Below, in pieces: positions 3,332 through 20,000 of a stretch of 20,000 nucleotides of DNA (within the stretch, counting starts at the first letter, position 1; each line of letters begins with the position of its first letter). The DNA is from an uncultured virus (IMG/VR IMGVR_UViG_3300006213_002470) (Duplodnaviria > Heunggongvirae > Uroviricota > Caudoviricetes), in IMG/VR virus record IMGVR_UViG_3300006213_002470. The stretch is one strand, 5' to 3'. A program made the position numbers and the translations under genes. The notes below the pieces were generated by a model, which worked only from the letters and a program-made list of their open reading frames with translations, searched no databases and was not told the DNA's origin.

Positions 3332-3664
3332 TTAAGTTCCCTCCTTTTTGCAAACATAGCCATCAAAAATTTCTACTGTGTTATTTGGTAATCCGGCATT
3401 CACTTTGGGACCTGCCACCAAAAGAACACTGATTACACTACTTCTTTCAAGGCTGGCATCCTTTACCTGATAAGCGGCTATGATATTTTCCTGCACATTG
3501 GCAGCTACATTGACCTTTGTGCAGTCAAATATATCCTCCTGCTTAACCTCATATCCCGCCGCCAACGCCACTGTTTCATAAAATGGCGTCAGTATCTGTT
3601 TCATCTGTTCATCAGACAAACAGACTAATTTAGATTTTTCTTCACAACTGTTTTTTCCTTTCAT
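3332..3664 (-). CDS. Hypothetical protein (110 aa)
   Basis: AGGAGG RBS upstream, 3 bp gap to the next gene, first gene of the left operon. Confidence 0.8.
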   Translation of the reverse strand: MKGKNSCEEKSKLVCLSDEQMKQILTPFYETVALAAGYEVKQEDIFDCTKVNVAANVQENIIAAYQVKDASLERSSVISVLLVAGPKVNAGLPNNTVEIFDGYVCKKEGT

Positions 3665-3773: not shown

Positions 3774-3815
3774 AAAAAATGGCAGAAAACGCACACTTAT
3801 CCTGTGCTTTCTGCC
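3774..3815 (-). terminator. Second leader intrinsic terminator of the left operon
   Basis: GGCAGAAAGCACA-loop-TGTGCGTTTTCTGCC followed by ATTTTTT. Confidence 0.7.
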
Positions 3816-3872
3816 GTAAGTACTTATAACATATTTAGTTATATTCTGTAATTCTGTTCCTCCTTTTCCCAT

Positions 3873-3899
3873 AAAAAAACATCCGGCACAGCCAGATGT
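3873..3899 (-). terminator. First leader intrinsic terminator of the left operon
   Basis: ACATCTGGC-TGT-GCCGGATGT followed by TTTTTT. Confidence 0.75.
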
Positions 3900-3920
3900 C
3901 ATCTACGTTATATCTATCAT

Positions 3921-3939
3921 GAACCCATTACTGGGAATT
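3921..3939 (-). promoter_or_regulatory. Conserved leader GNRA hairpin, copy 1 (candidate antitermination site)
   Basis: AATT-CCCA-GTAA-TGGG-TTC between the promoter (4000-4027) and the terminator (3873-3899). Matches copies at 15547-15565 and 18808-18826. Confidence 0.6.
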
Positions 3940-3999: not shown

Positions 4000-4027
4000 A
4001 TTATAATACTCTTTCCGATTTTGTCAA
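4000..4027 (-). promoter_or_regulatory. Sigma-A/70 promoter of the left operon
   Basis: TTGACA-N16-TATAAT on the minus strand, with perfect consensus hexamers. Confidence 0.75.
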
Positions 4028-4146: not shown

Positions 4147-4533
4147 ATGAACATGATTGCAATTCAAAATAATCCAATTTCCAAAAATACAAAGAAATTC
4201 TTAAAAAATATCGGCATTACGGATATCTCAGCAGTTGACACGATTTCCTTTTCTTCTTTGGAACAGAACCTCCTGCCTTACGATCTTGAAAAAATAGTAT
4301 ATGAGTTAATGCCTCTCGGATGCCTGCGCCACCCTGATGGCGAGATTTTCATTTTTGACATTCCAATGACCAAAAGATTACTGCATATCCTGGCGAATTA
4401 TGATGTATATTACTTATCAAGGCTGGCAAAGTACAGTCTTAGAGAAATTATGCAGTTCCGCAACCTCGGAGCCAATACCTTCCATGAATTGGAAAAAGTA
4501 TGCAAGGAATACGAAACCCCACTACCCGACTGA
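4147..4533 (+). CDS. Stand-alone RNA polymerase alpha-subunit CTD-like protein (about 128 aa), putative regulator
   Basis: C-terminal IPMTKRLLHILANYDVYYLSRLAKYSLREIMQFRNLGANTFHELEKVC follows the alpha-CTD pattern (LSVR..N.L....I....DL...S..EL...RNLG.KS..EI). Start re-assigned from 3919 to 4147 using the GAGG RBS and upstream promoter. Confidence 0.75.
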   Translation: MNMIAIQNNPISKNTKKFLKNIGITDISAVDTISFSSLEQNLLPYDLEKIVYELMPLGCLRHPDGEIFIFDIPMTKRLLHILANYDVYYLSRLAKYSLREIMQFRNLGANTFHELEKVCKEYETPLPD

Positions 4534-4544
4534 TATTTTGCAAT

Positions 4545-4590
4545 AAAAAAAGAGTTCTACACTTCTCATAGTACGAAATGCAGAACTCTT
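4545..4590 (-). terminator. Intrinsic terminator ending the large operon, between convergent genes
   Basis: AAGAGTTCTGCA...TGTAGAACTCTT followed by TTTTT on the minus strand. Confidence 0.7.
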
Positions 4591-5498: not shown

Positions 5499-8157
5499 AC
5501 CGCGCTCTCCTATTTACAGAAATATATTTCTCAATATCCTTAAGGAAATTGCTTTTCCCCGGATAGTCCTCCAGAATAAACAATACCCTTTTCGCCCTGG
5601 TTACTGCCACATATAAAAGCCTGCGATCCTCTTCCACATCGCCGCATTCAAAATTGTCTACCCCATAGATAATAACCGCAGGAAACTCTTTTCCTTTCGC
5701 GTCATGGGCAGTTAACATGCGGACCTGGGAACGCTCTCCCGTGCTGTAATAAATTCTCGTGTCGTCTTCAAAGACCTTCATTGCTGACATAATCTCATAG
5801 AGCTGTTTGTAATGCTTAATCTTCTTCTCATACATTATGTCCTCTATCTTCTCAAGCACCTCCTTCGTGCAGACTCCCGTTGGAAAGAAAAACAATCCCA
5901 ATTCCGACAACGCCTGCTTTAATGGCTTTTTCAACACCTGCATGGCACGATAAATAGAACCATATGCTTTTTTCAGCGGTTCCAACGGTTCCAGAAAATA
6001 TCTGCTGGATTCTTCCCCATAGAAATCATATATCAATCCCTCATTTACATGGTCCTCATAGATACTGAGCTTCCTGTCTGCCTTTTCCACTGTACAGCCC
6101 ATGATACTTAAAAGCCGGAACAATGCCTTATCCTGATGCATCCCCTTGACCGCAAGCTCCAACAAGTCCAAAAGCATCTGAAAAACGCAGTCTTCACGCA
6201 GGTAGAACTTCGGCCGTTCAAGCGGCACCGCTACACCGGTCAGGACTGCATCTTTATCTACAATCTTACACAGGTTATTCAGCTCCTTATTTGTCCGGGC
6301 AATTACTGCAATATCCGAATACGCATATCCTTTTCCATGTATTTCCTTAATCAGCGCCCCAAACCTGCAATCATTAAAATTGGGTATGTGTATAGCCTGT
6401 ATTCCCGTGGAAAAAGACGCTGCCAGCTGCATTGGCACCCGCTCCCGATTCTTTTCTATCAGACCTGACGCCATTGTTACAATTTCTTCTGAAGAGCGGT
6501 AATTCCTGGAAAGCAGAATATCTTTCGTTTCAGGAAATATGTCTGGGAAATCCAGCATAAATCGGTTGCTTCCGCCCCGAAAGGCATATATCGACTGATC
6601 CGCATCACCACAAATCATCAGATTATTTTCCGGTTCCTTCACCAGCAGCCTGACAAACTCCGCCTGGGCATCATCGAGATCCTGCACTTCGTCCACCATG
6701 ATATAGTCATACTGATTCTGCACCGTTTCCAAAATACCCTGATTGTTTTTCAACAGTTCTACCGCCATACCAACCTGATCGTCAAAGGTAATGTATCCCA
6801 TTTCTTTAAAGGCTGCATCATACAGCTTCTTGACTCCTATGATTCCTTCCACGTCTTTTTTGCTATATGCGTTAGAAAATGCCTCTATCCCATGCTTGTT
6901 AATAAATTCAAAATCTTTCAACAGCGTTGCTATCAGACCGTAGCGCATGGTAAGCCCCTCATAGCTGACCCCGGAAATCAAGGGCGCATGGTTAAGGACT
7001 TTCATCAACAGGTTCTTACAGTCCACAAGCCCTGCAAGACGTACCGGACCTGTCAGGAACTCATTCTGGGTGAGAATCCCAAATGCCAGCGCATGGAGTG
7101 TATAAATATTGACGCCCTGCCCCACCTGCACTCTCTCCTGCATTTCCTGCGCCGCTTTCTTGGTAAAGGTAATCGCAAGGATCTTTTCTGCCGGAACTCC
7201 TGACTCCGCCAGCTTTCGTATCCGTTCTACCAGGACAGCCGTTTTACCACTGCCGGGACCTGCGCACACACGAAGGGGACCCTTTACATGGTTTATTACA
7301 TTTTCCTGTTCTTTGGAAAAAGAAATCTCCTTTTTCTTTGTATGTGCTTCTTCCGCCTGCTTTAAAAGAACAATATTCGGCGGTTTGCAAATATTTTCAA
7401 AAAAGCAACCGTCACAGGAACACTCCTCTGCCTGTCCGATAATATGCTGTATATGCTCCCATACCCCTTCCGGATGCCGCTCAATATACTCCCCGCTTGA
7501 AATCTGAATGATATTATCACCTTTCTTTTCCTCGAACCTTGCAAGCCGGTCCGGTTTGTCAGCGGAAGATGCAAGCCTTACCATCATTACCCTGATCTCC
7601 TTTTGGGGATACTTTTTACTAAGCCCTTCCATCAGAACCAGCATTTCCAGACTGTTCTCCACTTTATGCTGCAGCTTCCTCGCCCTATATGAATACGGCT
7701 TACAAAAGTTCCTGCATAAAATGACGCCAACAATACTTCCATCAGACTGTTCAAACAGCAGGTCTGCCGTTCCTGAAATGCCAGTTACGTCTATTTCACC
7801 GTGGCACAGCGGCATCTCCAAAGATACCATTGTATTTACTGATATTCTTGCCAACGATGGGATTGGGAAATTCTTTAAGAACCGGTCAAACAGCGCAATT
7901 TCATGTGCAATCACCCTTTTACGCTGCCAGCAGAGGGCGAACCAGTCTTCCTGATACGCCTCCTCCATATACATCTGCAGCTCTTCTATGATGGTATCTC
8001 TTTCCTTTCCCATGGCAATTCCCGCAGACATCCTCCTGATTGCCTCACTAAAACATAGATTCCTTGCATTATGGTCTTTCAGTGAAAGTTTTTGCAGTTT
8101 ATATTTTCTGCCGCATTCCAATCCTGCAATCAAATCCTTACTCCTTATATGTTCCAC
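5488..8157 (-). CDS. UvrD/PcrA-family SF1A helicase with an N-terminal AddB/Cas4-like Fe-S PD-(D/E)XK-like domain
   Basis: Helicase motifs: SKEQ, AGPGSGKT, ITFTKKAA, VDEVQD, GDADQSIYAFRG, NYRS, TAHDAKGKEF, EEDRRLLYVAVTRAK. The N-terminus has C15, GTADLL and C248-x2-C251-x5-C257. GTG start with AAGGAGG RBS. Confidence 0.9.
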   Translation of the reverse strand: MEHIRSKDLIAGLECGRKYKLQKLSLKDHNARNLCFSEAIRRMSAGIAMGKERDTIIEELQMYMEEAYQEDWFALCWQRKRVIAHEIALFDRFLKNFPIPSLARISVNTMVSLEMPLCHGEIDVTGISGTADLLFEQSDGSIVGVILCRNFCKPYSYRARKLQHKVENSLEMLVLMEGLSKKYPQKEIRVMMVRLASSADKPDRLARFEEKKGDNIIQISSGEYIERHPEGVWEHIQHIIGQAEECSCDGCFFENICKPPNIVLLKQAEEAHTKKKEISFSKEQENVINHVKGPLRVCAGPGSGKTAVLVERIRKLAESGVPAEKILAITFTKKAAQEMQERVQVGQGVNIYTLHALAFGILTQNEFLTGPVRLAGLVDCKNLLMKVLNHAPLISGVSYEGLTMRYGLIATLLKDFEFINKHGIEAFSNAYSKKDVEGIIGVKKLYDAAFKEMGYITFDDQVGMAVELLKNNQGILETVQNQYDYIMVDEVQDLDDAQAEFVRLLVKEPENNLMICGDADQSIYAFRGGSNRFMLDFPDIFPETKDILLSRNYRSSEEIVTMASGLIEKNRERVPMQLAASFSTGIQAIHIPNFNDCRFGALIKEIHGKGYAYSDIAVIARTNKELNNLCKIVDKDAVLTGVAVPLERPKFYLREDCVFQMLLDLLELAVKGMHQDKALFRLLSIMGCTVEKADRKLSIYEDHVNEGLIYDFYGEESSRYFLEPLEPLKKAYGSIYRAMQVLKKPLKQALSELGLFFFPTGVCTKEVLEKIEDIMYEKKIKHYKQLYEIMSAMKVFEDDTRIYYSTGERSQVRMLTAHDAKGKEFPAVIIYGVDNFECGDVEEDRRLLYVAVTRAKRVLFILEDYPGKSNFLKDIEKYISVNRRARYEK

Positions 8158-8171
8158 TTTTTCCTCCTTAT

Positions 8172-8200
8172 AAAAAAACGGGGCAGCTTTCCGCCGCCCC
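8172..8200 (-). terminator. Strong intrinsic terminator internal to the operon, just before the helicase RBS
   Basis: GGGGCGGC-GGAAA-GCTGCCCC followed by GTTTTTTT. Confidence 0.8.
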
Positions 8201-9037: not shown

Positions 9038-9825
9038 ATTTTGTCCTCCTTGTTCATTTTAAATAATTCCATTGCATACTCCAGCAGTTTATCCAGCACT
9101 GCAATCCTGATGAAAAACAAACTATTCATCATCCGAAAGTTCACAGCGCCATCACCATTCCAACCTTCAAACAGGCCCAGTAAATACTTGCCTGCATCAA
9201 GCATGCAAAAATCTTCCTCGAATTTTATACATAACGGTCTACAGATTTCCTTCAGCAGTTCTTCAATTTTTTTATCCCCTTCCGAAAAAGCCAGCTTGAC
9301 TTTCCGGTAGTTTTGTTTCCTGAACTGCAGATACCATCCTAAATTATAATTCCAAAAAATATAGTATTTTGCATTGCTGCGATTTGGTTTTAGGATTTTT
9401 TTCATTTTTCTAACCAGCTTTGCCGCGCTTTTCCACTCTCCCAGTTGGCACGGCTCCGTATCCGGCAGCCGTGTCAGAACCTTCTCCTTGTATACCATAA
9501 TTCTGTACTGCCAGTTGCATTCCGTCATTACCTGCGTAAAAATTTTTCCGGCAAACTCTCCTGAATACCACTGCATGATATAGTTCTCGATATTCACGCT
9601 TTTATCCTTTCCTGACAAACAGTAATTAACAACCGGCAAAGAGACAGCTATATTCATATCCGCAATAAATTTTTCAATATACCGGTAAAGCAGAAGAAAA
9701 CGTACCCATTTTTCAACTGACAGATGCGATGATACATAGGTGGAAACCCATATCTTACTTATATCATATACCATTCCTTCATCAATCGGAGTCGTATCAA
9801 TGGCAAGAATATCTTCCAAGTTCAT
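9034..9825 (-). CDS. Hypothetical protein (about 263 aa), paralog of 8207-9037
   Basis: Start re-assigned to the ATG at 9825 (GGAGG RBS, ATGA overlap with the ThiF stop). N-terminus MNLEDILAIDTTPID. Confidence 0.85.
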   Translation of the reverse strand: MNLEDILAIDTTPIDEGMVYDISKIWVSTYVSSHLSVEKWVRFLLLYRYIEKFIADMNIAVSLPVVNYCLSGKDKSVNIENYIMQWYSGEFAGKIFTQVMTECNWQYRIMVYKEKVLTRLPDTEPCQLGEWKSAAKLVRKMKKILKPNRSNAKYYIFWNYNLGWYLQFRKQNYRKVKLAFSEGDKKIEELLKEICRPLCIKFEEDFCMLDAGKYLLGLFEGWNGDGAVNFRMMNSLFFIRIAVLDKLLEYAMELFKMNKEDKM

Positions 9826-10529
9826 GATGCCTCCTCCCTCGGCGTCCGATCCATTGAATAGCACTTGAACGCATCAAAGAAAACAATTCCGCCTGGCCAG
9901 TCATCCGAAAGAAACTTTATCGTATTAGCCAGCAGGATTAATGCTGCGAACTGGTTTGTTAAGAGATGCTGCGGTTCTGCCTGGTTCAAGACCTCACAGC
10001 TCTCCTCGCTCCTTTTTACAGCCCCCTCCTGCAGCACATCAGGAAAATAACTTGCCCTGTCAGGGTACATTTCCATCCCACCTATCCGCGATCCAATAAC
10101 GATTTCTCCCGACTGATATTCATTTGCACTATCCATGTAGATACAATGTTCCCTGTTCATATAAAAACTGTGCATGCTCTGCCTGCACTGGTGGTTATCG
10201 ACACACCCCACCAGAAAAACAAGCGAGTTGTCCCTCACAAGCTTTTCTATGTCCTTTTCGCAGTCAATATAACCGTCATAGTAATCCACGGAAAGACCAT
10301 ACGCCTGAGAAAGCATCTCAGCCATGACCTGCGCCTTATTATACCCTATATCCTGCGGCAAAAAAGCCTGCCTTACCAGATTTTTGTCCTCAACCTGATC
10401 ACCGTCAACCAGGACTATACGTATTTCATCGTTCCGCAGGCACCTGTTTCCATAAAGATATCTTCCAAGTTCCTTGATATAATGGCTTCCCGTGCCGCCA
10501 CATCCAACAATGACAATATCACTTTTCAT
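9822..10529 (-). CDS. ThiF/E1-family adenylyltransferase (PRTRC-type)
   Basis: IVIVGCGGTGS, LVDGDQVEDKNLVRQ, NKAQV, GCVDN...R, and candidate catalytic Cys in EESCE. Start at 10529 has a GGAGG RBS. Confidence 0.9.
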   Translation of the reverse strand: MKSDIVIVGCGGTGSHYIKELGRYLYGNRCLRNDEIRIVLVDGDQVEDKNLVRQAFLPQDIGYNKAQVMAEMLSQAYGLSVDYYDGYIDCEKDIEKLVRDNSLVFLVGCVDNHQCRQSMHSFYMNREHCIYMDSANEYQSGEIVIGSRIGGMEMYPDRASYFPDVLQEGAVKRSEESCEVLNQAEPQHLLTNQFAALILLANTIKFLSDDWPGGIVFFDAFKCYSMDRTPREEAS

Positions 10530-12270
10530 TTGTCTTATCCTCCATTTCAAAAACATCACTCAGCTTCAGCATTTTGTAATTTCCGGCAATGCCGGCACGC
10601 AGCTTATGGGTAATTTCTTTCTTGTCAAGGTTGCCAAATACCATAAACAGGCGCGTGCCTTTCTCGTCATTATCATCTATGGACGAAAAAAAGGCATTCA
10701 TGCTTCCATGACTATGTATATCCATAACCAATACTTTGTCATTTTCCATATCGTGGTTGCGCGTAAAAACAACACTTGCAGACGTCACTTGCTGTTCCGG
10801 ATAATATATTTCATACTTTTCCGTTTCCAAGTTATAAAAAATCTGCACGGCAGCTTCCTTGCGCGGATTTCTCTTAAAAAAGGCAACAACATCCATCAAA
10901 ATCCCATAAGGAATCTTTTTTTCCGTCATCCTGAAATCCACATCGGAACCGTCTTCCCTGCAGTCAAAACATCCATACGGCATCTGCTCAATTCTGTAAA
11001 CAGAACCATCACGCCCCGTTACAATAAAAAACCCCTGATTCTTGCGCACATTCATTATCTGAACGCCTTTCCGGGAGCCTTTGAGTACTGGAATAACAAA
11101 TCCCCTTTCGTCATAATGCATTTCTGTACGCTCTTTTGAAAATTCCGGATAAATGCGCTCTATCACTGTACGGATTTCTTGCAGCGTAGCCGACTCTGCG
11201 TTTTTCAGGTCTTCTTTCTCAACCATCATTGTAAAGCCGGATCCACGTACAAGAATAGGCAGGCCAATCCGTTCGTTGTCCATCTCCTTTTTAAACTCCA
11301 ATACTGGGAACAGCAGGTTAATTTCTGCATTATAAACGAACATTCCGTTTTCGTACTCAGGATGCTTTTTCCCATAAGTTTTACGGATTTCCTCTAAAGT
11401 CACCTGTTCTTTTTCCGCATTTCCAAAATCCACGCCAGTATACGTTTCCTTTTGATCCAGATATCCTATTTGGATAGGCAGGCTGTACTTCTTACCCTTG
11501 ATTTCGGTACCGCCTAACATATATGGGAACAGCAGGCTGTTTCTCTCATCATAACAGAAATGACAACCCGCATATTCAGGATACTCTTTCACCCAGGCCT
11601 CGCGAATTTCTTCAAGCGAAGCCTTTTCCTTTATTTCCAGTTCATATTTCCCGACTTTAACAGTTAACGGAAATGCGATGGTCTGATCCTTTTTTACTTC
11701 CTGATACTGGATATCCAGCTTGACCCAGCACCCTCCGCTCTGACTGGTTTTTTCATCTGTTTGTCCGTCATCAGATCCACCGCCTGTCTCCGCAGCTTCT
11801 TCCTCAGCATCCAGTTCTTCATCCTGCTCCTCGCCCTCATCTTCATTCCCATAATCTTCTTCAGACGCAGCTTCCGCAATGTCTAACGGTTCTTCTTCAG
11901 TTCGGTCTTTCTCATCATCCGCGTCTGTATTTTCCGCAAGCTTTTCCATTGTTTCATGCAGCCTCGTAAATTCATTGCTGAACTTTACAAGACTGAACTG
12001 AATACCGCTCAATTCAGGATACAGCTTACGAAGCTCTGTCTTTATTTCGTTTTCGCCCAGAGTCACTCCTCCAAACTGCTCATTCGTAAGCGTACACTGG
12101 ATATATCCGCTTCTGATCCGCACGGGTAACTGATAGCGTCCACCCTGCTTTACGGGCTTTTTTTCCTTCTTCGCTGTTTTTCCGCTGCCCTTTCCTTTTG
12201 CACCTTTCTTCTTGTTAGCCACATCCTCACTGCTGATTCCAAATAATTCTGCTAAACTGCTACTGCTCAT
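10519..12270 (-). CDS. Four tandem prokaryotic Ubl-like repeats fused to a C-terminal JAB/MPN metallopeptidase
   Basis: JAB motif E(KEAAVQ)...HSHGSMNAFFSSIDD. Four repeats of LP/FP...(S/T)LEEIR...(Y/H)PE...hhPh, the last ending GSRKG. The second ATG (12270) has better RBS spacing than 12276. Confidence 0.85.
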   Translation of the reverse strand: MSSSSLAELFGISSEDVANKKKGAKGKGSGKTAKKEKKPVKQGGRYQLPVRIRSGYIQCTLTNEQFGGVTLGENEIKTELRKLYPELSGIQFSLVKFSNEFTRLHETMEKLAENTDADDEKDRTEEEPLDIAEAASEEDYGNEDEGEEQDEELDAEEEAAETGGGSDDGQTDEKTSQSGGCWVKLDIQYQEVKKDQTIAFPLTVKVGKYELEIKEKASLEEIREAWVKEYPEYAGCHFCYDERNSLLFPYMLGGTEIKGKKYSLPIQIGYLDQKETYTGVDFGNAEKEQVTLEEIRKTYGKKHPEYENGMFVYNAEINLLFPVLEFKKEMDNERIGLPILVRGSGFTMMVEKEDLKNAESATLQEIRTVIERIYPEFSKERTEMHYDERGFVIPVLKGSRKGVQIMNVRKNQGFFIVTGRDGSVYRIEQMPYGCFDCREDGSDVDFRMTEKKIPYGILMDVVAFFKRNPRKEAAVQIFYNLETEKYEIYYPEQQVTSASVVFTRNHDMENDKVLVMDIHSHGSMNAFFSSIDDNDEKGTRLFMVFGNLDKKEITHKLRAGIAGNYKMLKLSDVFEMEDKTNEK

Positions 12271-12285
12271 AATCATATCCTCCTT

Positions 12286-12993
12286 TTATTTTTTCCATGT
12301 CATTAAATCTTTCAGGCACATATTCCCTCTCTGCTTTTTTATTGGCATAAGATATTCTTCTGGGAAATCCTGTTTGTTATGGAGCTGCTCAAATAGTTCA
12401 CGCAGCGGTATATCCTTCACTCCAATACACTTTTCTGACTTATACAGATCCGAGTTGCATGGACTCTGTATAAACAGCGTCATTACCATTTCCAGCCTCT
12501 TTATTTCCAGGATGTCCGGAAATACATTACTTCCCCAACAAACTCTCCCATCATCGTATACGTTTCCAAATGGATATCTGTAAAGCACACTATTCCCCGT
12601 CGGTTTATCATCTTTTAATACAAAAACCCGCGTTTTTTCCAGCCTGCCCTTATCCACATGAAACGAAAACACAAGTGACGGCACACAGACATCGTACTGA
12701 GTATTCTCATACTGCATCATCTGCATGCTTGCAGGTAGCACAGTGACAATATCCGCCTTTAACTTATTGTTTCTAATACCAACCGCACCGTTGTAATATC
12801 CAAACGGAATTTCTCCAATAGGTGTTAGTTCTACTGTTTCAACAACCGACTTTTGAAAAGCTTTTAACAGAGAGCCCATTTCTACCATTTTGGAATTTTT
12901 TCTTCCTTTCTCATCCGTAAATACAACATTGGCACAATCGTAACCATGAGAACGGTTAAAATTCTGATTCAAATAAATCGCTATATCCTGCAT
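12286..12993 (-). CDS. Prokaryotic E2 family D protein (PRTRC system protein B-like)
   Basis: VPSLVF...LYRYPFGNVYDDGRVCWG signature with the catalytic-position Cys, adjacent to JAB and ThiF genes. Alternative start at 12999. Confidence 0.85.
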   Translation of the reverse strand: MQDIAIYLNQNFNRSHGYDCANVVFTDEKGRKNSKMVEMGSLLKAFQKSVVETVELTPIGEIPFGYYNGAVGIRNNKLKADIVTVLPASMQMMQYENTQYDVCVPSLVFSFHVDKGRLEKTRVFVLKDDKPTGNSVLYRYPFGNVYDDGRVCWGSNVFPDILEIKRLEMVMTLFIQSPCNSDLYKSEKCIGVKDIPLRELFEQLHNKQDFPEEYLMPIKKQRGNMCLKDLMTWKK

Positions 12994-13013
12994 TACCATA
13001 CCCTCCTTTTACT

Positions 13014-13292
13014 CTACAACGCTCTCCGCTGATTATTTTTATAATCAACCAGCTTCGATGCATCAAAATAATCTTCGGCACACGATTCATAAAGACTCAA
13101 AATTTCCGGTGTCTCATGAAACAGGTCTGCCATTCCTTCCAGACTAAGTTCATTAATGACCCTCTTATCTCCTGCCAATACCAAAAATAATGTCCGAAGC
13201 CTTTGACTTTTCTCATTAAGCTGACCGATATCCACGGGCTTCAGCTTCGATAATTCCTTCTGAAACCGCTTTCCATCAATAAAAATAGCCAA
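13014..13292 (-). CDS. Hypothetical protein (92 aa)
   Basis: TTG start with AAAGGAGG RBS, tightly packed in the operon. Confidence 0.8.
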   Translation of the reverse strand: MAIFIDGKRFQKELSKLKPVDIGQLNEKSQRLRTLFLVLAGDKRVINELSLEGMADLFHETPEILSLYESCAEDYFDASKLVDYKNNQRRAL

Positions 13293-13308
13293 AACGTATC
13301 CTCCTTTT

Positions 13309-14265
13309 TTAGTGAATAAAATTGCAATAGTTCAAAACATAATCAAAGCCTAATCCTCCCGCACTCATAGGTTCCATAACAAACCTGTATACCTTTGGAT
13401 AATTTTCCCTAAGCCGCTGGTACCTGTTCGGCTGTTCCTCCAAATGGCATCCCATAGCGCAGTACATACAGCCTGTCCTCTGCTCGCCCGTATTGTAATA
13501 GGCTCCTTTTTCGCCGCAGATTTTACCGTATACAGGACATATCCTTAAATTATTTTCCACTGCATACCGCAGGATATCCTGCCGCGGCCAGAAACCGAGT
13601 GGCTGTGATTTAGGCTTATCTGCAAGATACACGTTGCACCCTGTCCGGTTATACTGTCTCTGCCTCATAAAACCTTCATCCTGCGTGATCCCTATGTATG
13701 GCACCCGTCCGGTTCTTTTTCCATATTCAGTCAACGGTTTTTCCTTCATGACTATGCAGCAATATTCGCTTATATCAAACGGCGCATCTATAAGGAATTT
13801 CCAGCATTCAGACAGCTTACCAAGCTTCCCCCGTTCATCTCCATGCAAAAGGTAATTCCGGTAGCGCTCTGACAGGTTTCCATGCCTGAGCTTTCGTATC
13901 TTTGCAGCAACTTCCTTACTGATTAACGGATAGCCATAAGTAAGCAGGACATCTTTAAAATTCATTTCCGGATACAGGATTTCCACATCATAAAAACTAC
14001 GGACAAACTCCCGTATCTGAGGGAATTCTAAGCCTGTATCCACAAAAACCTTTGGTATGGACCGGTCCAGAACCCTCTCCACCATATGCACCAGCACCGT
14101 TGAATCCAGGCCGCCGGAAAAACTGATATACACATCTCCGCCATAATATTCATACCATTGCCGTATCCGTGTAGCAGAGAGCCTCAGCTTTATCTCATAT
14201 GGCAGATATTTTCGCTGACTGAACTCCCAATCCTGCAGTTTCAAATCTTTGTCCATGATATACAT
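13309..14265 (-). CDS. PAPS-reductase-family (PP-loop) protein, phage/mobile-element type
   Basis: ISFSGGLDS PP-loop, VFVDTGLEFP, CC..MKEKP and RTGCMYC (Fe-S Cys pattern). Confidence 0.85.
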   Translation of the reverse strand: MYIMDKDLKLQDWEFSQRKYLPYEIKLRLSATRIRQWYEYYGGDVYISFSGGLDSTVLVHMVERVLDRSIPKVFVDTGLEFPQIREFVRSFYDVEILYPEMNFKDVLLTYGYPLISKEVAAKIRKLRHGNLSERYRNYLLHGDERGKLGKLSECWKFLIDAPFDISEYCCIVMKEKPLTEYGKRTGRVPYIGITQDEGFMRQRQYNRTGCNVYLADKPKSQPLGFWPRQDILRYAVENNLRICPVYGKICGEKGAYYNTGEQRTGCMYCAMGCHLEEQPNRYQRLRENYPKVYRFVMEPMSAGGLGFDYVLNYCNFIH

Positions 14266-14269
14266 TTTC

Positions 14270-14728
14270 TTACACCCTTTTTCTAGCTAAAAAGCTGAAA
14301 TCAATCTCCTTTTGCAAAAATAAAAGAATGTAAATACCTACTTCATAAATGAACAGGTTCACCCTGTTGCTATGATAGTTTTGTATCCACATTCCTGCTA
14401 TCCGGGCAGCATCTTCCGCGTTGCCCACAATTTTCCCTTGCTCCAGCCGGCATCCTTTCATTGTAATCTTCTCTGCAATGTCAAACCCGGCATATTTCGT
14501 CTCCATTCGTTCGCGGTAATACTTCATCAGTTCCTCCGCCTCGCTTAAATTTTCAAGCAATATCACCGCTTCCATTTCATCAATGCAGAGCCCGTCTTCC
14601 ACATCCTCCGCCAACTGCATTGCCGCAATCAGGTACAGCACATAGAGCGCATAAGCGTAATGATAGTTGACATATACATCAAACGGCTCTATCCCATGCT
14701 TTCTAAAAAACTGACTTCCTTTCATCAT
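14270..14728 (-). CDS. Hypothetical protein (152 aa)
   Basis: ATGA overlap with the upstream stop and 4 bp gap to the next gene. Confidence 0.8.
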   Translation of the reverse strand: MMKGSQFFRKHGIEPFDVYVNYHYAYALYVLYLIAAMQLAEDVEDGLCIDEMEAVILLENLSEAEELMKYYRERMETKYAGFDIAEKITMKGCRLEQGKIVGNAEDAARIAGMWIQNYHSNRVNLFIYEVGIYILLFLQKEIDFSFLARKRV

Positions 14729-15450
14729 GCTGCGCCTTTCTTGTCAAATGAAACAAATTCCAGCTGCATACTCCCGCGGTATTCTTTGCGTATCCCGCGA
14801 AAAGTCATTTCATTCAGTTTTTGCCCAATCTGAAATTTTTCACCGTATGCTTTTTGGAGATCATCCCACTGCTTTTTCCAAATGAAAAGCTCGAGTGTTT
14901 CCCCATCACAACATACTTTCGCCTTGACACCGCCCTTCGGCAAGGCTTTAAAAGGCTCCATGACCGTCACTTTCACGACCACTTCTTTCTGCGGTTCCCG
15001 ACCGGGCTGCCGAGATCCGGTTGACGCTTTTCCTTTCATGCCAATCCCGAACCTTTTTGCACATCGTTTAAAAACATCCTGCACTGCAGAGTCAACCGAA
15101 TTTGCAACAGATGTTGGACGTGTTGATTCTTTGGGATAGATGACATCTGCCGCCCCGCTGGTACTGCGCACAATAGGTACACGCTCGTCATCATAGATAC
15201 TGAGTTTTCCGCTTGCAATGCAGCTTTCAAATCCATCAGATCCGAAACTGTACACCTGGACGGGGGCTATGAGTTCAAAGTCCCAATTTCCCATACCCAC
15301 CACGTTATTCAGGCGCTCTTCAATCTTTTCAACCGGTATGTACGCCATTCCTGTTGACGGATGCTTTTTTACCGCATCTGAAGGAAATTCCGCCTGAAGC
15401 TTTTCCCATACTTCTCGTATGGGCATTCCATTTACTGTTCTTTCTTTCAA
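14725..15450 (-). CDS. Rad52/Rad22 (Sak-like) single-strand annealing protein with a probable C-terminal OB fold
   Basis: LQAEFP..., AYIP...IEERLNNVVG..NW, SAVQDVFKRCAKRFGIG. C-terminal GxxxEYRGxxQL beta-rich domain. Start re-assigned to the TTG at 15450 (AAAGGAGG RBS). Confidence 0.85.
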   Translation of the reverse strand: MKERTVNGMPIREVWEKLQAEFPSDAVKKHPSTGMAYIPVEKIEERLNNVVGMGNWDFELIAPVQVYSFGSDGFESCIASGKLSIYDDERVPIVRSTSGAADVIYPKESTRPTSVANSVDSAVQDVFKRCAKRFGIGMKGKASTGSRQPGREPQKEVVVKVTVMEPFKALPKGGVKAKVCCDGETLELFIWKKQWDDLQKAYGEKFQIGQKLNEMTFRGIRKEYRGSMQLEFVSFDKKGAA

Positions 15451-15479
15451 GATAATCCTCCTTTTATAAAATTTTTCAT

Positions 15480-15510
15480 AAAAAAAGCGCCTACAGTAAC
15501 CTGTAGACGC
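15480..15510 (-). terminator. Leader intrinsic terminator of the large operon
   Basis: GCGTCTACAG-GTTA-CTGTAGGCGC followed by TTTTTTT, between the promoter and the first gene. Confidence 0.8.
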
Positions 15511-15546
15511 AATATTTTTATGATGCACCCTTATCATACACAAAAA

Positions 15547-15565
15547 GACCTGTTTCCAGGAATTT
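15547..15565 (-). promoter_or_regulatory. Conserved leader GNRA hairpin, copy 2
   Basis: AAATT-CCTG-GAAA-CAGG-TC on a basal stem ACAGAGGGA/TCTTTTTGT. Confidence 0.6.
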
Positions 15566-15618
15566 AATCCCTCTGTCAGCATACGCTGGCGGTGTGAATA
15601 ATAAAGAATGTTTAGGAT

Positions 15619-15647
15619 ATTATATTATAAGTTGGTTAGGTTGTCAA
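15619..15647 (-). promoter_or_regulatory. Sigma-A/70 promoter of the large operon
   Basis: Perfect TTGACA-N17-TATAAT on the minus strand. Confidence 0.85.
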
Positions 15648-15678: not shown

Positions 15679-15726
15679 TGAAGCTCCCCCGCAGCTCTGC
15701 TGCGAAGAATTAGCCCCTGATAGATT
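15679..15726. repeat. Short GC-rich palindromic element, possibly an IS200/IS605-derived (PATE/REP-like) relic
   Basis: Minus strand AATCTATCAGGGGCTAATTCTTCGCAGCAGAGCTGCGGGGGAGCTTCA: a hairpin ending in TTCA that abuts the lipoprotein stop codon. The resemblance to IS200/IS605 ends is from recall only. Confidence 0.3.
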
Positions 15727-16609
15727 AAAACGCATTTTCCAAGGCAATATTCACATTCTCATTTGTTAAATCATACCAACTTACATTAGCCTTTTCTTCC
15801 TGTAGGCTCATTGCATTATTGAAGTCTTCTTCAGAACAGGGGGTACCATTTGCAAAATATTGAACAACAAGTTCATTATTAGAATTATACTGAGATATAC
15901 TATAATACAATTTATCAACCGTGAATCCATCCTTAGAAAATTCAAGTTTTCCTATTCCCGAGTCAGCAGCGCCGCCAGAAAATATGAATGTCCCATCTGT
16001 TTTCAAATCTATGAACTCCCTATAAGGCAATGTATACCCATAAACAGCTCCATCTTGATACCGAAGTATCTCAAATCCATAATCTGAGACTCCATTGATT
16101 TGCAACCAAAGCACAATTTCTTTTCCTCCATTGCCACTTAAATCTATAATCGAAAATTTAGTCGCTACTACTGAGATACTCTCATCATCCGTAACAACCT
16201 CTTTTATGTCTTCGAGATTTATTTTCCTGTTCTGTAATTCAGTGCTTATAAAATCTCCATTGTCTATAAGCACAGCTTTATAGCTTTCTTCTGCAAGTGG
16301 TAACTGCTCCTCTTTTCCATTGTTATTTACATCTGTAGAAGCTTGCGGTTGCCCGTTACTTTCTTCCACAGAAACTTGTGGCTTATCATTGCTTACTTCC
16401 ACAGAATCCTGCGATTGATCGTTACCTTCTTCAGAGTATTGATTTTCATTACCCACATTAGTTGTAGAAGAATCATCCATCACTCCACTCTCCCTGTTGG
16501 AATCTGCATTTTCTCCATTAAAGGTGCAAGAACAAAGCATACACATTAGTGCCACTCCTAATAAAATCAGATATGTGTGTTTACAAAAAATATTAAATTT
16601 CCGTTTCAT
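15725..16609 (-). CDS. Lipoprotein of unknown function (candidate immunity protein or inhibitor for the adjacent lysozyme)
   Basis: Basic N-terminus, hydrophobic stretch and lipobox LCSC, then a low-complexity linker and an acidic domain. AAGGAG RBS. Confidence 0.8.
   Translation of the reverse strand: MKRKFNIFCKHTYLILLGVALMCMLCSCTFNGENADSNRESGVMDDSSTTNVGNENQYSEEGNDQSQDSVEVSNDKPQVSVEESNGQPQASTDVNNNGKEEQLPLAEESYKAVLIDNGDFISTELQNRKINLEDIKEVVTDDESISVVATKFSIIDLSGNGGKEIVLWLQINGVSDYGFEILRYQDGAVYGYTLPYREFIDLKTDGTFIFSGGAADSGIGKLEFSKDGFTVDKLYYSISQYNSNNELVVQYFANGTPCSEEDFNNAMSLQEEKANVSWYDLTNENVNIALENAF
16313..16411 (-). repeat. Three degenerate 33-bp in-frame tandem repeats in the lipoprotein linker
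   Basis: QDSVEVSNDKP / QVSVEESNGQP / QASTDVNNNGK. Confidence 0.65.
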
Positions 16610-16736
16610 ATAAAATTATGCTCCTTTTCATTCATAGGTATATTTAACCTACAATTTACCAAATTGGCATCAATCAATTCTATTCCACTAAATCCGCTAA
16701 ATCTTACCTCTTTATTTCATTACCATCAATATTGCA

Positions 16737-16801
16737 ATTTTACTTCTAAATCCCTGTCAGTGTCAATCAAAACCCGATATTTTCTACATGACAGGGATTT
16801 A
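16737..16801 (-). promoter_or_regulatory. Lipoprotein promoter overlapped by a perfect 13-bp inverted repeat (candidate operator)
   Basis: TTGACA(16766-16761)-N18-TAAAAT(16742-16737). IR arms are TAAATCCCTGTCA (16747-16759) and TGACAGGGATTTA (16789-16801). Confidence 0.55.
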
Positions 16802-16969
16802 CAAAGCATACTCATAGTGACTACAAGAGCATAAATTGGACTATATTACATTTGGAGCTCAGATTATCCTTATATAAATTCTTATCCCCATATATAATCT
16901 CCACATCTCCCTCTGTAACAGCATACAATAACTGGCAAGAAACAGAAAATATTATTCACTTCCTACAAG

Positions 16970-17992
16970 TTATAAACTATTGTACCAAGCAGTTGCGTAT
17001 GAGGCTCTCTGATTCAATACAGCAATTCCGTCTCCAGATCTCTCATAATGATCATGGAATACTTTGGCCAGAGTGCCAGCATCCAACGTAGATGCCTTAA
17101 ACTCAGAAAAAGTCAGCCTAATTCCTGTATGATCCATGCTACCACCAGCGGTAGGCTTAAAAAAATCCCCCCTAGAAGTGCAACACCATAGTAAACAAGA
17201 TAACTCAGCATTCATAAGAGTCTTGGGATTACTGTTTGTTAAGTTATTAACAGCAGCTGCTGTGGCTGCACTTAATACACCCGTTTCCACTGCTCTGTTG
17301 AGGAATACAGTTGCCGGAGTCCATTGTACTAAGCCATAACCAAGAGAAGTATTATTTGATGACTGCCATATTCCGGGATTTATTCCACTTTCTTGCTGCA
17401 TATTACCTAAAACTCCACATGCCGCATTTTTTGTAAACCCTTGCTGCATCAAGTATGACAGTACATACTTTGCATTGCTTGTCATTTGTGCAGATGTTAA
17501 TGTTGATACGCCCGTACATACCGAAGCATAAACATTTCCTGTAACGACGCTACCACCACCGGGATATACATCATATCCGAACAAGTACTGCCACGTAAGA
17601 GAATTGACTACACCAGTATTACTGATCCCCATCTTCTGCTGAAATGTTTTTGTTGCTGATTCAGAGCCAGCGCCGAATGCACCATCTATTGAAACAGACT
17701 CAAACTTGTTAATTAAATACTGTGCTGCCCTTGCTGCATTATTAGAAGTACCTCTTTTCACCTCAACAACAATTGCAGCCAAAGTTGCAGGACCCGCTAT
17801 TCCATCAGGATCCAGATTATGTTTTGACTGATAGCTGGAAAGCGCCGTCTTAGTGCCGTTGCCAAAATTTCCATCAACAGAAATTGAAGCACCATGATAA
17901 TTAAGCAAACACTGCAATGCAGACACATTTGCTCCTTTGTTCCCTGACTTAATAGTAGGCCATTTCGGTGTTGTTGCGAAAACTGTTTCCAT
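16970..17992 (-). CDS. Peptidoglycan hydrolase: two PG_binding_1 domains plus a phage-tail-lysozyme (Phage_lysozyme2-like) domain
   Basis: DGNFGNGTKTALSSYQ...DGIAGPAT and DGAFG..SESATKTFQ repeats. Catalytic domain AACGVLGNMQQESGINP...GYGLVQWT...YERSG. Start re-assigned to 17992 (AAGGGG RBS). No signal peptide. Confidence 0.85.
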   Translation of the reverse strand: METVFATTPKWPTIKSGNKGANVSALQCLLNYHGASISVDGNFGNGTKTALSSYQSKHNLDPDGIAGPATLAAIVVEVKRGTSNNAARAAQYLINKFESVSIDGAFGAGSESATKTFQQKMGISNTGVVNSLTWQYLFGYDVYPGGGSVVTGNVYASVCTGVSTLTSAQMTSNAKYVLSYLMQQGFTKNAACGVLGNMQQESGINPGIWQSSNNTSLGYGLVQWTPATVFLNRAVETGVLSAATAAAVNNLTNSNPKTLMNAELSCLLWCCTSRGDFFKPTAGGSMDHTGIRLTFSEFKASTLDAGTLAKVFHDHYERSGDGIAVLNQRASYATAWYNSL

Positions 17993-18557
17993 AATTATAT
18001 CCCCTTTTTTTTGCAAATATTCAATTTTCATCATTTTTGTAATATTAATTTCATGTTACACTACTGAATTTTTATTTCCAGCCACCACTAAACAATATTT
18101 AGCTTGAATCCATCATAATCACCCCTTCTCTACTGTTTTTATGAAGTATTCATCGTTATACATACGCTGTCAACTAATGATGCACTCTTGATTTTTCTAT
18201 TTTTATACAACAATTTTCCAAGTTTGTTAATAGAATTTTGTAAATGTACAACTTTTCATTCTAATGTACAATATAAACATTCAACTTTGTATAGTACATC
18301 TCTATCCTTTATACAGACATCATTCCACCAAAACATAATATTTTAAACCATCATTATAATATTCTCATATATGCTTTGCTTTCTTACTTCAGCATCACTT
18401 CAATAAAAAACTAGTTTTTATTACATGAATCAAATATACTGCAATATCTCATTGAACGATGCCGTCTTTATGAAAATTCTTTTATCAATATTTTAAAATT
18501 ATATCAATTAGGTTTATTTTTGCACCCTCTTATACAAAATCTAAACCATACACACAG

Positions 18558-18693
18558 CCTGTTACTGTTCACTCCGTTCCAGTAACAGGTAAAAATCCAT
18601 GCAAAATCACCTTCGATGATGGTTTTTTACTTGGTTCCAGTAGGTTTTCGTACGAAATTAACAGTAACTGCTAATTCCTGTCTGAACAGTAAC
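18558..18693. repeat. Cluster of CAGTAAC boxes and palindromes (candidate oriT/ori)
   Basis: Perfect IR CCTGTTACTG/CAGTAACAGG (18558-18589), AACAGTAAC at 18660 and 18685, GTTCCAGTA twice (18576, 18634), and palindrome TTTCGTACGAAA (18646-18657). Lies upstream of the relaxase-like gene. Confidence 0.55.
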
Positions 18694-18729
18694 CACAGCA
18701 TTCTTCAATTTCAAAAATATTTTTATATC

Positions 18730-18759
18730 TTGCCAGCTATAACTTTCATGTGCTACAAT
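18730..18759 (+). promoter_or_regulatory. Sigma-A promoter with extended -10 for the Replic_Relax gene
   Basis: TTGCCA-N18-TACAAT, with TGTG-N immediately before the -10. Confidence 0.65.
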
Positions 18760-18807
18760 ACCTTTGTTATTATTAGCATTTAGCTCCTTTTGGACAAAAT
18801 ATAGATC

Positions 18808-18826
18808 AAATCCCTGGCAACAGGTT
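18808..18826 (+). promoter_or_regulatory. Conserved leader GNRA hairpin, copy 3
   Basis: AAATC-CCTG-GCAA-CAGG-TT immediately before a terminator. Confidence 0.6.
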
Positions 18827-18830
18827 ATTT

Positions 18831-18855
18831 AAGCTGCAGATTCTGCGGCTTTTTT
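18831..18855 (+). terminator. Leader intrinsic terminator upstream of the Replic_Relax gene
   Basis: AGCTGCAG-ATT-CTGCGGCT followed by TTTTT. Confidence 0.75.
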
Positions 18856-18884
18856 ATTTTGAACAGAAAGGAGTATTTAAACAA

Positions 18885-20000
18885 ATGCAAAACACACTAA
18901 ATTTTAAAGATACACTGATTAAGGAAGCCGGCTTGCTTTCCCTGACAAAAAGCGACTGCGACCTCTTTATTCTCGCCCAAGCAAACACACTAACCTACCA
19001 ACAGTTATCAGCCACTGGACTTCACGGCATTTCCACTACCGGAGGGCGACTGAGCTTGAAAAAGCTCACAGAACAGGGATACATAACGGGTAAGACCCTG
19101 CCAAATACCAATCGTGTAAGGTATTTCATCCTGACTGCAAAAGGGAAAACGCGCCTGGAAAAGATTTTTAGCAGTACATTTTTAAGCACAAAGCAGATTG
19201 ACCTTGAGCGCAGACCCCCGACAAGCCAGCAGCAACTCCCACACCGCATCCACACCAACGATTTATACTTTGCGTATCTCTCCTGCCCATACCTTGAAAT
19301 TCTCCCCGTATGGCAATTGGAGGCACGCTATCAGGCAGCATCGGAAAAACAACAGACACCCCGATGTGACGGTCTGCTTGAAACAGGATACGGCAATTAC
19401 TACATAGAGCTGGATAACCGTACGCAGGGAGATGCTGCATTAGAAAATAAGCTGTCACAATATATGGATTCTGATCTGTTTCTTGGCAAGAATGTAATGA
19501 AAAATGCCCTTGTTTTTACATTAAACACGGAAGTAAAATTGCCGCCGGTAAAGAAATCGCCCTATTCCGTATACCGGATCTTGCTAAAGGCCATCCGCAT
19601 ATGGCAGGCTCTGGAGAAGGAACAGGATAAAGCAATACATTTTTCAGCATTCTGCGACATTATGGAGAATGGCAGCTATCCTTATTTATGCCTGCTGTCA
19701 GGAAACGACAAAATTATTTTAAGGAATCTGTGCAGGCAATATCCCGATATCTCATTAAACGATGCAATCCTTATGAAAAAAGAATTCCTATATGATACAT
19801 CCCTACAGGATGAGCGCGTTTCCAATCAGGACGCGCTTTTTTTGAAACGTCTGAAGCAGAAATTTTACAGCATACTGGATAACCGCCACTACGCCACTCT
19901 GCATTACCGTATTAGACAGGGTATGCGTTTATATGCCATTCCTAACCATAGGCTGGCAGATAACATACCTTTTCATGGCGATCACATCCATGTTTCTTGA
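18885..20000 (+). CDS. Replication-relaxation family protein (wHTH plus PD-(D/E)XK-like; MOBC-type relaxase-like)
   Basis: N-terminal wHTH (LTYQQL...LKKLTEQGYI...YFILTAKG), then PHRIHTNDLY and PRCDGLL...YYIELDNRT...KLSQY. AAAGGAG RBS. The stop falls exactly at the window end. Confidence 0.75.
   Translation: MQNTLNFKDTLIKEAGLLSLTKSDCDLFILAQANTLTYQQLSATGLHGISTTGGRLSLKKLTEQGYITGKTLPNTNRVRYFILTAKGKTRLEKIFSSTFLSTKQIDLERRPPTSQQQLPHRIHTNDLYFAYLSCPYLEILPVWQLEARYQAASEKQQTPRCDGLLETGYGNYYIELDNRTQGDAALENKLSQYMDSDLFLGKNVMKNALVFTLNTEVKLPPVKKSPYSVYRILLKAIRIWQALEKEQDKAIHFSAFCDIMENGSYPYLCLLSGNDKIILRNLCRQYPDISLNDAILMKKEFLYDTSLQDERVSNQDALFLKRLKQKFYSILDNRHYATLHYRIRQGMRLYAIPNHRLADNIPFHGDHIHVS

Follow-up and report, generated by a model that had tools for sequence, protein, structure and literature searches.

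The window, that is, the whole stretch of 20,000 nucleotides that was analyzed, contains three operons that are each headed by a copy of the same short leader, referred to here as leaders A, B, and C. Positions 15480–15647 (minus strand) hold the whole of leader B, from the −35 hexamer through the end of its terminator. By Pfam, the operon behind it encodes Rad52-like, PAPS-reductase-like, Prok-E2_D, JAB fusion, and ThiF/E1-like proteins, and its further genes encode two unknowns, a UvrD-type helicase, and a DNA polymerase III delta-like protein. A ubiquitin-like conjugation cassette (9822–14265, minus strand), consisting of the Prok-E2_D, JAB fusion, and ThiF/E1-like genes and a 92-aa possible Ubl, shares this one operon with the Rad52-like, PAPS-reductase-like, UvrD-like, and Pol III delta-like genes. 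Products of the leader A operon include an unknown protein of 716 aa and a DUF4313 protein, and leader C heads a Replic_Relax (relaxase-like) gene, again as assigned by Pfam.

Other features of the window lie outside the leaders. Two genes are leaderless, one for a lipoprotein-like product (15725–16609) and one for a peptidoglycan-binding lysozyme (16970–18034), and separate promoters serve them, at 16766 and 18173. The 700-nt gap 5′ of the relaxase-like operon contains an inverted repeat, CCTGTTACTG...CAGTAACAGG, together with repeated ACAGTAAC words (18555–18700), and this region looks like an oriT or a site for binding a regulator. Contigs of several sequencing runs end at 18559–18561, with loose ends that differ. 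Within the JAB-fusion gene, positions 11944–12031 (minus strand) weakly match the gyrA RNA motif of Rfam, at 31.6 bits (E 1.8e-4) where the gathering score is 45. The public RNA runs containing the stretch are represented by Logan contigs only, which show neither ends nor levels and whose uncovered parts prove nothing. In two RNA runs, the leaderless genes (15957–18173) lie on the deepest contigs, with a depth of 37, versus 2.6–4.8 within the leader-headed operons, a difference that cannot rank expression.

The three leaders share one order of parts: a promoter, a hairpin designated P2, an intrinsic terminator with its T run, and then a ribosome-binding site (RBS) and start codon. The first-pass annotation had reported this order for three transcription units, and it was seen at all three sites. 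P2 corresponds to the motif AATYCCYRGNAAYRGGT, for which a pattern scan allowing up to 2 mismatches found three exact matches in the window, at 3939–3923 (minus strand), 15564–15548 (minus strand), and 18809–18825 (plus strand). Chance would be expected to give 0.17 matches in the window, and three copies were reached in 0 of 200 dinucleotide shuffles. All three P2 hairpins are carried by the transcribed strand, and the copies read CCCA-GTAA-TGGG, CCTG-GAAA-CAGG, and CCTG-GCAA-CAGG, just as first described. The gap from the −10 hexamer to P2 is 53–64 nt in these leaders. The promoters had been called near-consensus sigma-A promoters, which holds for all three, two at 12 of 12 positions and the third at 10 of 12 with an extended −10 TG.

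In leader B, the promoter (15619–15647, minus strand) is one of the perfect matches, with TTGACA (15647–15642), a 17-nt spacer, and TATAAT (15624–15619). It is followed on the same strand by the U-rich tract TTCTTTATTATT (15597–15608), by a second hairpin, P1 (15577–15588, CAGC-GTAT-GCTG), recognized by RNAalifold and covariation, and by P2 (15548–15564), which reads AATT-CCTG-GAAA-CAGG-T and folds as a GNRA tetraloop hairpin. The intrinsic terminator (15480–15510) has a 10-bp stem at 15510–15487 (−16.5 kcal/mol) and a run of seven T residues, after which come an RBS and the Rad52-like gene, which starts with TTG at 15450. From an AUG in the loop of P1, an open frame (15582–14725, minus strand) extends across the terminator and into the Rad52-like gene with no stop codon. 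This frame is probably due to chance, since it lacks a preceding RBS and the other classes of leader do not conserve the AUG.

Leader A, also on the minus strand, has the second perfect promoter (4000–4027, TTGACA-16-TATAAT), a U-rich tract (3987–3973, from sequence and alignment), a P1 with the loop TTAT and two G·U pairs (3966–3955, RNAalifold), P2 (3923–3939, AATT-CCCA-GTAA-TGGG-T), and an intrinsic terminator (3872–3900) in which the hairpin at 3900–3878 precedes the T run. A second terminator-like hairpin (3781–3815, minus strand, −16.7 kcal/mol) lies 3′ of leader A and ahead of the gene at 3664–3332. Between the leader A terminator and this hairpin (3781–3868, minus strand) there is only an RBS-like AAGGAGG and a mini-ORF, an arrangement that could be tandem attenuation or a leader peptide. 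Leader C, on the plus strand, has the weaker promoter (18730–18759, TTGCCA-18-TACAAT), a U-rich tract (18761–18774, from sequence and alignment), a P1 of TCC-TTTT-GGA (18785–18794, RNAalifold), P2 (18809–18825, AATC-CCTG-GCAA-CAGG-T), and, only 5 nt past P2, an intrinsic terminator (18831–18856, hairpin 18831–18851). The ATG at 18885 opens the relaxase-like gene.

The shared motif was first described as a single hairpin. P2 is indeed a real hairpin, but the module proved to be larger, with P1 as a second covarying hairpin and a U-rich tract in front of it. The common leader module covers ~70 nt and consists of the U-rich tract, the variable P1, and an invariant P2 of the form AAUY-CCYR-GNRA-YRGG-U. 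The tract is invariant as TTCTTTATTATT in three classes of leader (B, D, and E), and the P1 sequence differs from class to class. A linker of 14–20 nt with AAUY at its end lies between P1 and P2, and a U follows P2. As judged from the sequences, the universal core of the module is the U-tract, P1, and AAUY-P2-U. Internal spacing is constant, whereas anywhere between 5 and ~70 nt separates P2 from the terminator. An apparent joint from 12290 to 15548 in the RNA-run contigs, along with loose ends at 15569, was set aside as apparently derived from contigs of other leaders with a common 22-nt P2 region.

Relatives of the window were retrieved through an alignment of E2_D homologs, which gave 10 loci in species-representative genomes plus a further 19 in metagenomes, and every titled record among them is of the Lachnospiraceae type. 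The relatives keep leaders at equivalent positions. Orthologs of leader B have the loops GAAA, GGAA, or GUAA and those of leader A have GUAA or GCAA, and in a distant group with 46–50% E2_D identity, the P2 stem is CCUA/UAGG. Building a covariance model from the copies and scanning relatives with it had been proposed at the outset, and the model made from the leaders recovered diverged copies in four related genomes (G001–G004). It gave 34 matches (33 of them distinct) from 23 sources, in related Lachnospiraceae elements. The motif does sit in promoter-proximal leaders there: all 34 matches lie 3′ of a promoter-like site, which is a 12/12 promoter in 20, and the gap from −10 to P2 is 53–71 nt over the leader set. 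The P2 loop is a GNRA tetraloop on the sense strand in all 33 distinct leaders (GCAA 13, GAAA 7, GGAA 5, GTAA 4, GCGA 2, GAGA 2), and one further copy has GGGA. The stems are CCUG/CAGG in 21, CCCA/UGGG in 6, and CCUA/UAGG in 6.

The leader module is rare outside these related elements. Over 151 sampled Lachnospiraceae genomes, model R2 matched only G001 and G142, and the match in G142 is false. The 17-mer pattern occurred in 18 of 301 genomes (the reversed-pattern control in 4), and by context, the matches are real leaders in G001 and G217 only. Plasmid and phage collections gave no Megablast match to the window, and searching viral contigs with alignment A1 and with the E2_D and Rad52-like proteins gave no relatives. 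A scan of IMG/VR contigs for the leader pattern returned two chance matches whose stems lack complementarity, and no leaders were found there.

The fullest view of the module comes from G001:C1, a 147-kb contig with an E2_D protein 72% identical to that of the window. It carries seven leaders, at 7782 (−), 27087 (−), 51679 (−), 69978 (+), 81809 (+), 110993 (−), and 128810 (−). Every one of them has its own promoter, a U-tract, a differing P1, and the 17-nt P2 consensus without deviation, followed by a terminator and an RBS. Behind the leaders lie operons that encode a DNA methylase with an SNF2 helicase and a beta-clamp-like protein; a clamp loader and then, past an internal terminator, DnaE; a relaxase-like protein with a type IV coupling protein; Rad52/Ubl/UvrD; DUF4313; PcfM/SSB; and a Tad-like pilus. 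Several operons had been proposed to form one leader-sharing set, and the set is larger than that claim. Thus, the leader module marks the core of a very large conjugative element, where it stands ahead of most operons.

The gene content of this contig has other features of its own. It encodes its own DnaE, beta-clamp-like protein, gamma/tau, delta′, delta, and ParA/ParB, along with a complete t6A set (Sua5, TsaD, TsaB-like, and TsaE), several radical-SAM/SPASM clusters, and two agr-like loci. AbiH and a cyclase resembling a Pycsar-type defense gene are also found. At ~119,680–119,725 (L054 19680–19725, minus strand), 5′ of a Csp-like gene, there is a tRNA-like T-arm fragment, GGTTCGAATCC, with acceptor-like flanks. 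ARAGORN found no tRNA at this fragment, which may be the remnant of an attachment site.

The conservation of the module points to a role for the RNA. The first-pass annotation had argued for RNA structure from compensatory stems and a kept GNRA loop, an argument that is strengthened by covariation of both P1 and P2 and by the loop in 33 of 33 leaders. In alignment A2, a plain MAFFT alignment of 22 leaders that was not fitted to any structure, RNAalifold predicts P1 and P2 unaided. Standard pairs are formed in 98.8% of cells, versus 17–44% in slid controls, and there are 26 double-change cells, versus 6.7 ± 2.1 in column shuffles (0 of 500 as many). The covariation set comes from one element family with many orthologs and paralogs, and these counts are not independent and overstate the number of events. 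In P1, G·U pairs are used in both orientations in this alignment (UG 7, GU 4), and one P1 pair in the 34-leader alignment, which is fitted to the model and leans to structure, occurs as AU 10, GC 10, UA 6, GU 4, and CG 1. The constraint on the module is, on this comparative evidence, at the RNA level, because both helices covary and P1 uses G·U pairs. The G·U pairs and the strand-specific G-N-R-A loop argue for RNA and not a DNA palindrome, which would show neither.

The operons behind the leaders also contain terminators of their own. In operon B, an internal intrinsic terminator (8174–8200, minus strand; hairpin 8200–8180, −16.8 kcal/mol) has a T run that touches the RBS of the UvrD-like gene (GTG at 8157), which leaves no room for a promoter. 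This terminator is at the same position in 12 of 12 close loci and is also present in 3 distant loci, where the stem sequence has changed. The helicase and delta-like genes would need read-through 7.3 kb past the leader, because the conserved terminator adjoins the RBS without space for a promoter. In G001, more intergenic terminators were found within four leader-headed operons. Operon B is closed by a terminator with a 15-bp stem (4551–4589, minus strand, −20.5 kcal/mol). This is similar to the situation in pLS20, where the conjugation operon ends in a long-stem terminator that is reported to resist conAn processive antitermination (PMC10325885).

Conserved internal terminators that abut the ribosome site of the next gene are the reason to argue for processive antitermination. 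By analogy, the anatomy of the module is that of hairpin-recruited processive antitermination. To our knowledge, only a few such systems are established in Gram-positive mobile elements (LoaP, conAn, canT, and EAR), with one or two sites each. No Rfam family accounts for the leaders, in line with the original suggestion that the regulon is undescribed: a comparison of the window with Rfam 15 at E ≤ 1 gave no match at the three leader sites, and at nine further leader loci, the only matches were GcvB, at 21.5 bits (E 0.71), and PhrS, at 19.7 bits, neither of them close to the gathering score.

In anatomical terms, the closest parallel is LoaP of Bacillus velezensis. That system is described as having a UNCG-type hairpin in the dfn/mln leader that is essential for antitermination, a NusA-dependent leader terminator, long operons with internal terminators, and the same hairpin in more than one leader (PMC12691694). 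The likeness extends to the promoter, the small tetraloop hairpin, the intrinsic leader terminator, and the long operons with internal terminators. The differences are also clear. The hairpin is of the UNCG type in the LoaP system, whereas here it is GNRA in 33 of 33 leaders and has invariant AAUY and U flanks. LoaP-regulated operons are encoded along with a NusG paralog, but none was found in the four genomes searched here. Finally, at least seven leaders are found on one mobile element, and the module includes the covarying P1 and the U-rich tract.

The nut sites used by lambda N offer a second comparison. Both systems place a GNRA-type hairpin on the nascent RNA between an early promoter and terminators, with several copies per mobile element, and both require read-through of distant terminators, which for the present element we infer. 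In lambda, a 5-bp stem carries the GNRA-like pentaloop of boxB, whereas here a true tetraloop caps a 4-bp stem, and the terminator comes before the first gene. Neither a boxA-like match to rrn leaders nor an Arg-rich N-like ORF was found here, in contrast to the lambda system. The boxA comparison used six rrn leaders from two Lachnospiraceae genomes, which are not the hosts; these leaders are unlike the U-rich tract or P2, and their conserved box is absent from the window.

A trans-acting factor was sought in several ways. A search for a NusG/LoaP paralog or an Arg-rich N-like protein had been suggested, and neither turned up. A six-frame search of G001–G004 with PF02357 gave one housekeeping NusG match in each of three genomes and none in G004, all off the element contigs. 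None of these four genomes had a match to ConAn1 (PF17362, pXO2-34) at E ≤ 1. A crude scan for Arg-rich proteins among ORFs of 25–160 aa in the window and G001:C1 gave only alternative-frame ORFs inside genes. Comparison of 67 unknown ORFs with PHROGs gave nothing regulatory, and Q-family Pfam models matched none of 150 of the 152 ORFs of G001:C1.

Two proteins remain as leads. One is an alpha-CTD-like protein of 128 aa (4147–4533, plus strand), which is encoded divergently from leader A behind its own promoter without a leader. Its Pfam score for PF03118 is 22 bits in the window, below the cutoff, and 29.2 bits in the G001 homolog, above the cutoff; phmmer finds RpoA chains at E 0.06–0.8, and the nearest Atlas clusters are alpha-CTD proteins, with a score of 0.90. 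An AlphaFold model had a mean pLDDT of 58, too poor for a fold search. The gene is found in the G001–G004 elements and was not seen within ±10 kb at the distant loci L019–L023. Its sequence makes it a candidate regulator, as a lead only. The other is a Csp-like (cold-shock-domain) protein whose gene is found on the G001 and G003 elements, between two leaders in both, and directly upstream of an agr-like locus in G001. CspA-family proteins are antiterminators that bind U-rich single strands. The Csp-like protein is likewise a candidate for the factor and only a lead, and U-rich binding would not explain the invariant P2.

The first-pass annotation described the motif as a nut-like antitermination leader. 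A structured RNA leader with fitting anatomy that is common to independent operons is well founded, and the proteins associated with the known systems (a NusG/LoaP paralog, ConAn1, or an N-like ORF) were not found. The best of the readings considered is that the module is a nut- or LoaP-like loading hairpin for factor-dependent processive antitermination, which we consider about as likely to be right as wrong. Here we infer read-through, processivity, and the existence of a factor acting in trans. A strong sigma-A promoter would transcribe the leader, and by default transcription would stop at the efficient leader terminator. The putative factor would recognize P2 on the nascent RNA and pass to the elongating RNA polymerase, and the modified polymerase would read through the leader terminator and the conserved terminators within the long operons. 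The variable distance from P2 to the terminator, 5 to ~70 nt, makes a fixed competition between antiterminator and terminator unlikely, and therefore the effect would have to travel with the polymerase. The factor is probably encoded by the element, and probably of a kind not yet described. Because the same module heads at least seven operons of the related element, a single factor would turn on the conjugative element as a whole, including replication, transfer, recombination, and the pilus.

Antitermination might also need no protein. An RNA of the HK022 put, EAR, or Tn916 canT type, in which P1–P2 binds the polymerase in cis while promoters regulate and terminators insulate, is an improbable alternative. 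HK022 put is a short RNA with two stem-loops just after promoters and before terminators, it is found in two copies per element, and no protein is needed for its action. We know of no GNRA/AAUY signature in put. The module resembles put in having two stem-loops right after promoters and ahead of terminators, and its stem-loops fit within ~50–70 nt, in several copies on one mobile element. The searches for NusG, ConAn1, PHROGs matches, and Arg-rich ORFs found no protein factor, as this explanation would predict. There is precedent in canT and conAn2, which show that RNA elements are able to antiterminate in Gram-positive conjugative elements (PMC11658703, PMC8191782). As in those Bacillota elements, the operons here are long and have internal terminators, which there are overcome by an RNA-based processive system. 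However, these RNAs are much larger and are described for a single site per element: canT is 341–452 nt (PMC11658703), and conAn2 is a single RNA of ~300 nt located after conAn1 at the start of the conjugation operon (PMC8191782), whereas the present module of ~70 nt precedes at least seven operons. The absence of ConAn1 (PF17362) in four of four genomes is a further difference from conAn. In addition, a 12/12 promoter whose spacer lacks a conserved operator, followed by a constitutive antiterminator and, directly after it, a strong terminator, would leave the operons permanently on. The invariant single-stranded AAUY and U, the invariant lower stem, and the free loop N also look like a protein-recognition site.

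A ligand- or protein-controlled attenuator, in which a three-way junction senses a signal and acts on the leader terminator only, with the internal terminators handled otherwise, is unlikely. This possibility draws on a third helix, P0. In classes B, D, E, and F, the U-rich tract, as the 5′ strand, pairs with an A/G-rich strand 3′ of P2 and closes a P0–P1–P2 three-way junction next to the terminator; the pairing extends to 15 of 15 positions in one class. For leader B, the P0 duplex (15597–15608 with 15537–15526) is predicted at −13.0 kcal/mol, versus −5.9 ± 2.1 for shuffled sequences (0 of 300 as good). P0 is better than at least 98% of shuffles for B, D, E, E3, F, F2, and B5 and is a weaker case for D2 and E2, where 11% and 8% of shuffles are as good. 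P0 is missing in classes A, C, G, H, I, and J, which rules it out as a universal helix, and leader C has just 5 nt between P2 and the terminator. A riboswitch would not be expected to have P0 in only 4 of ~10 classes or a P2–terminator spacing of 5–70 nt. No conserved alternative pairing of P2 with the terminator arms was found by eye across classes, and the B-type terminator is unchanged whether P2 is CCUG or CCUA. Few conserved unpaired nucleotides remain for a pocket, no Rfam riboswitch matched, and an attenuator leaves the conserved internal terminators unexplained.

A consensus promoter followed immediately by a strong terminator would also fit other uses of a short RNA. The short terminated transcripts (~95–135 nt) could themselves be the product, as small RNAs that titrate a protein, or the module could be a processing or stability signal, such as an RNase hairpin. 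Consensus promoters and efficient terminators would yield abundant short RNAs with an identical putative protein-binding hairpin from at least seven loci. Still, every copy is directly 5′ of an operon on the same strand, with an RBS 10–30 nt past the terminator and no second promoter, and the downstream genes would be left without a visible route to expression, so that we give such roles a low probability. A DNA-level site, with the P2 inverted repeat as an operator or roadblock for a dimeric regulator or as part of a Q-type promoter-proximal loading site, is very improbable. In its favor, CCYR-NNNN-YRGG is also a DNA palindrome, −10-like TATTAT words occur in the early transcribed region (at varying distances from the promoter), and in Q-type systems a leader terminator goes together with a promoter and a −10-like element (BaGTA preprint, 10.1101/2024.11.20.624540). 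Against it, the spacer is asymmetric and strand specific (sense-strand G-N-R-A in 33/33), P1 pairing is kept through G·U, spacing is fixed from P1 to P2 and not to the promoter (−10 to P2 53–71 nt), and no Q-family match was found in 150 of the 152 ORFs on the seven-leader contig.

Antitermination has a bolder form, which is tentative and which we think less probable than its opposite. A GNRA-hairpin leader before every core operon would make the module the regulon-wide master switch of a giant element, operated by a factor family not yet linked to antitermination or by the module alone on the polymerase, with the replication, transfer, recombination, and pilus genes released together. The alpha-CTD-like protein, which could act on NusA or polymerase, and the Csp-like protein at the agr-like locus could serve as leads for this version.

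The analysis finds a compact RNA signature on at least seven operons of an element of more than 120 kb, which is equipped with a replisome of its own as well as a Tad-like pilus and a ubiquitin-like cassette. The leader motif is a ready candidate for a new RNA family. If the module is a loading site, the 17-nt hairpin would be a simple handle for finding the factor. It would also offer a route to asking how a huge element silences dozens of genes behind consensus promoters and then fires them jointly in gut commensals.
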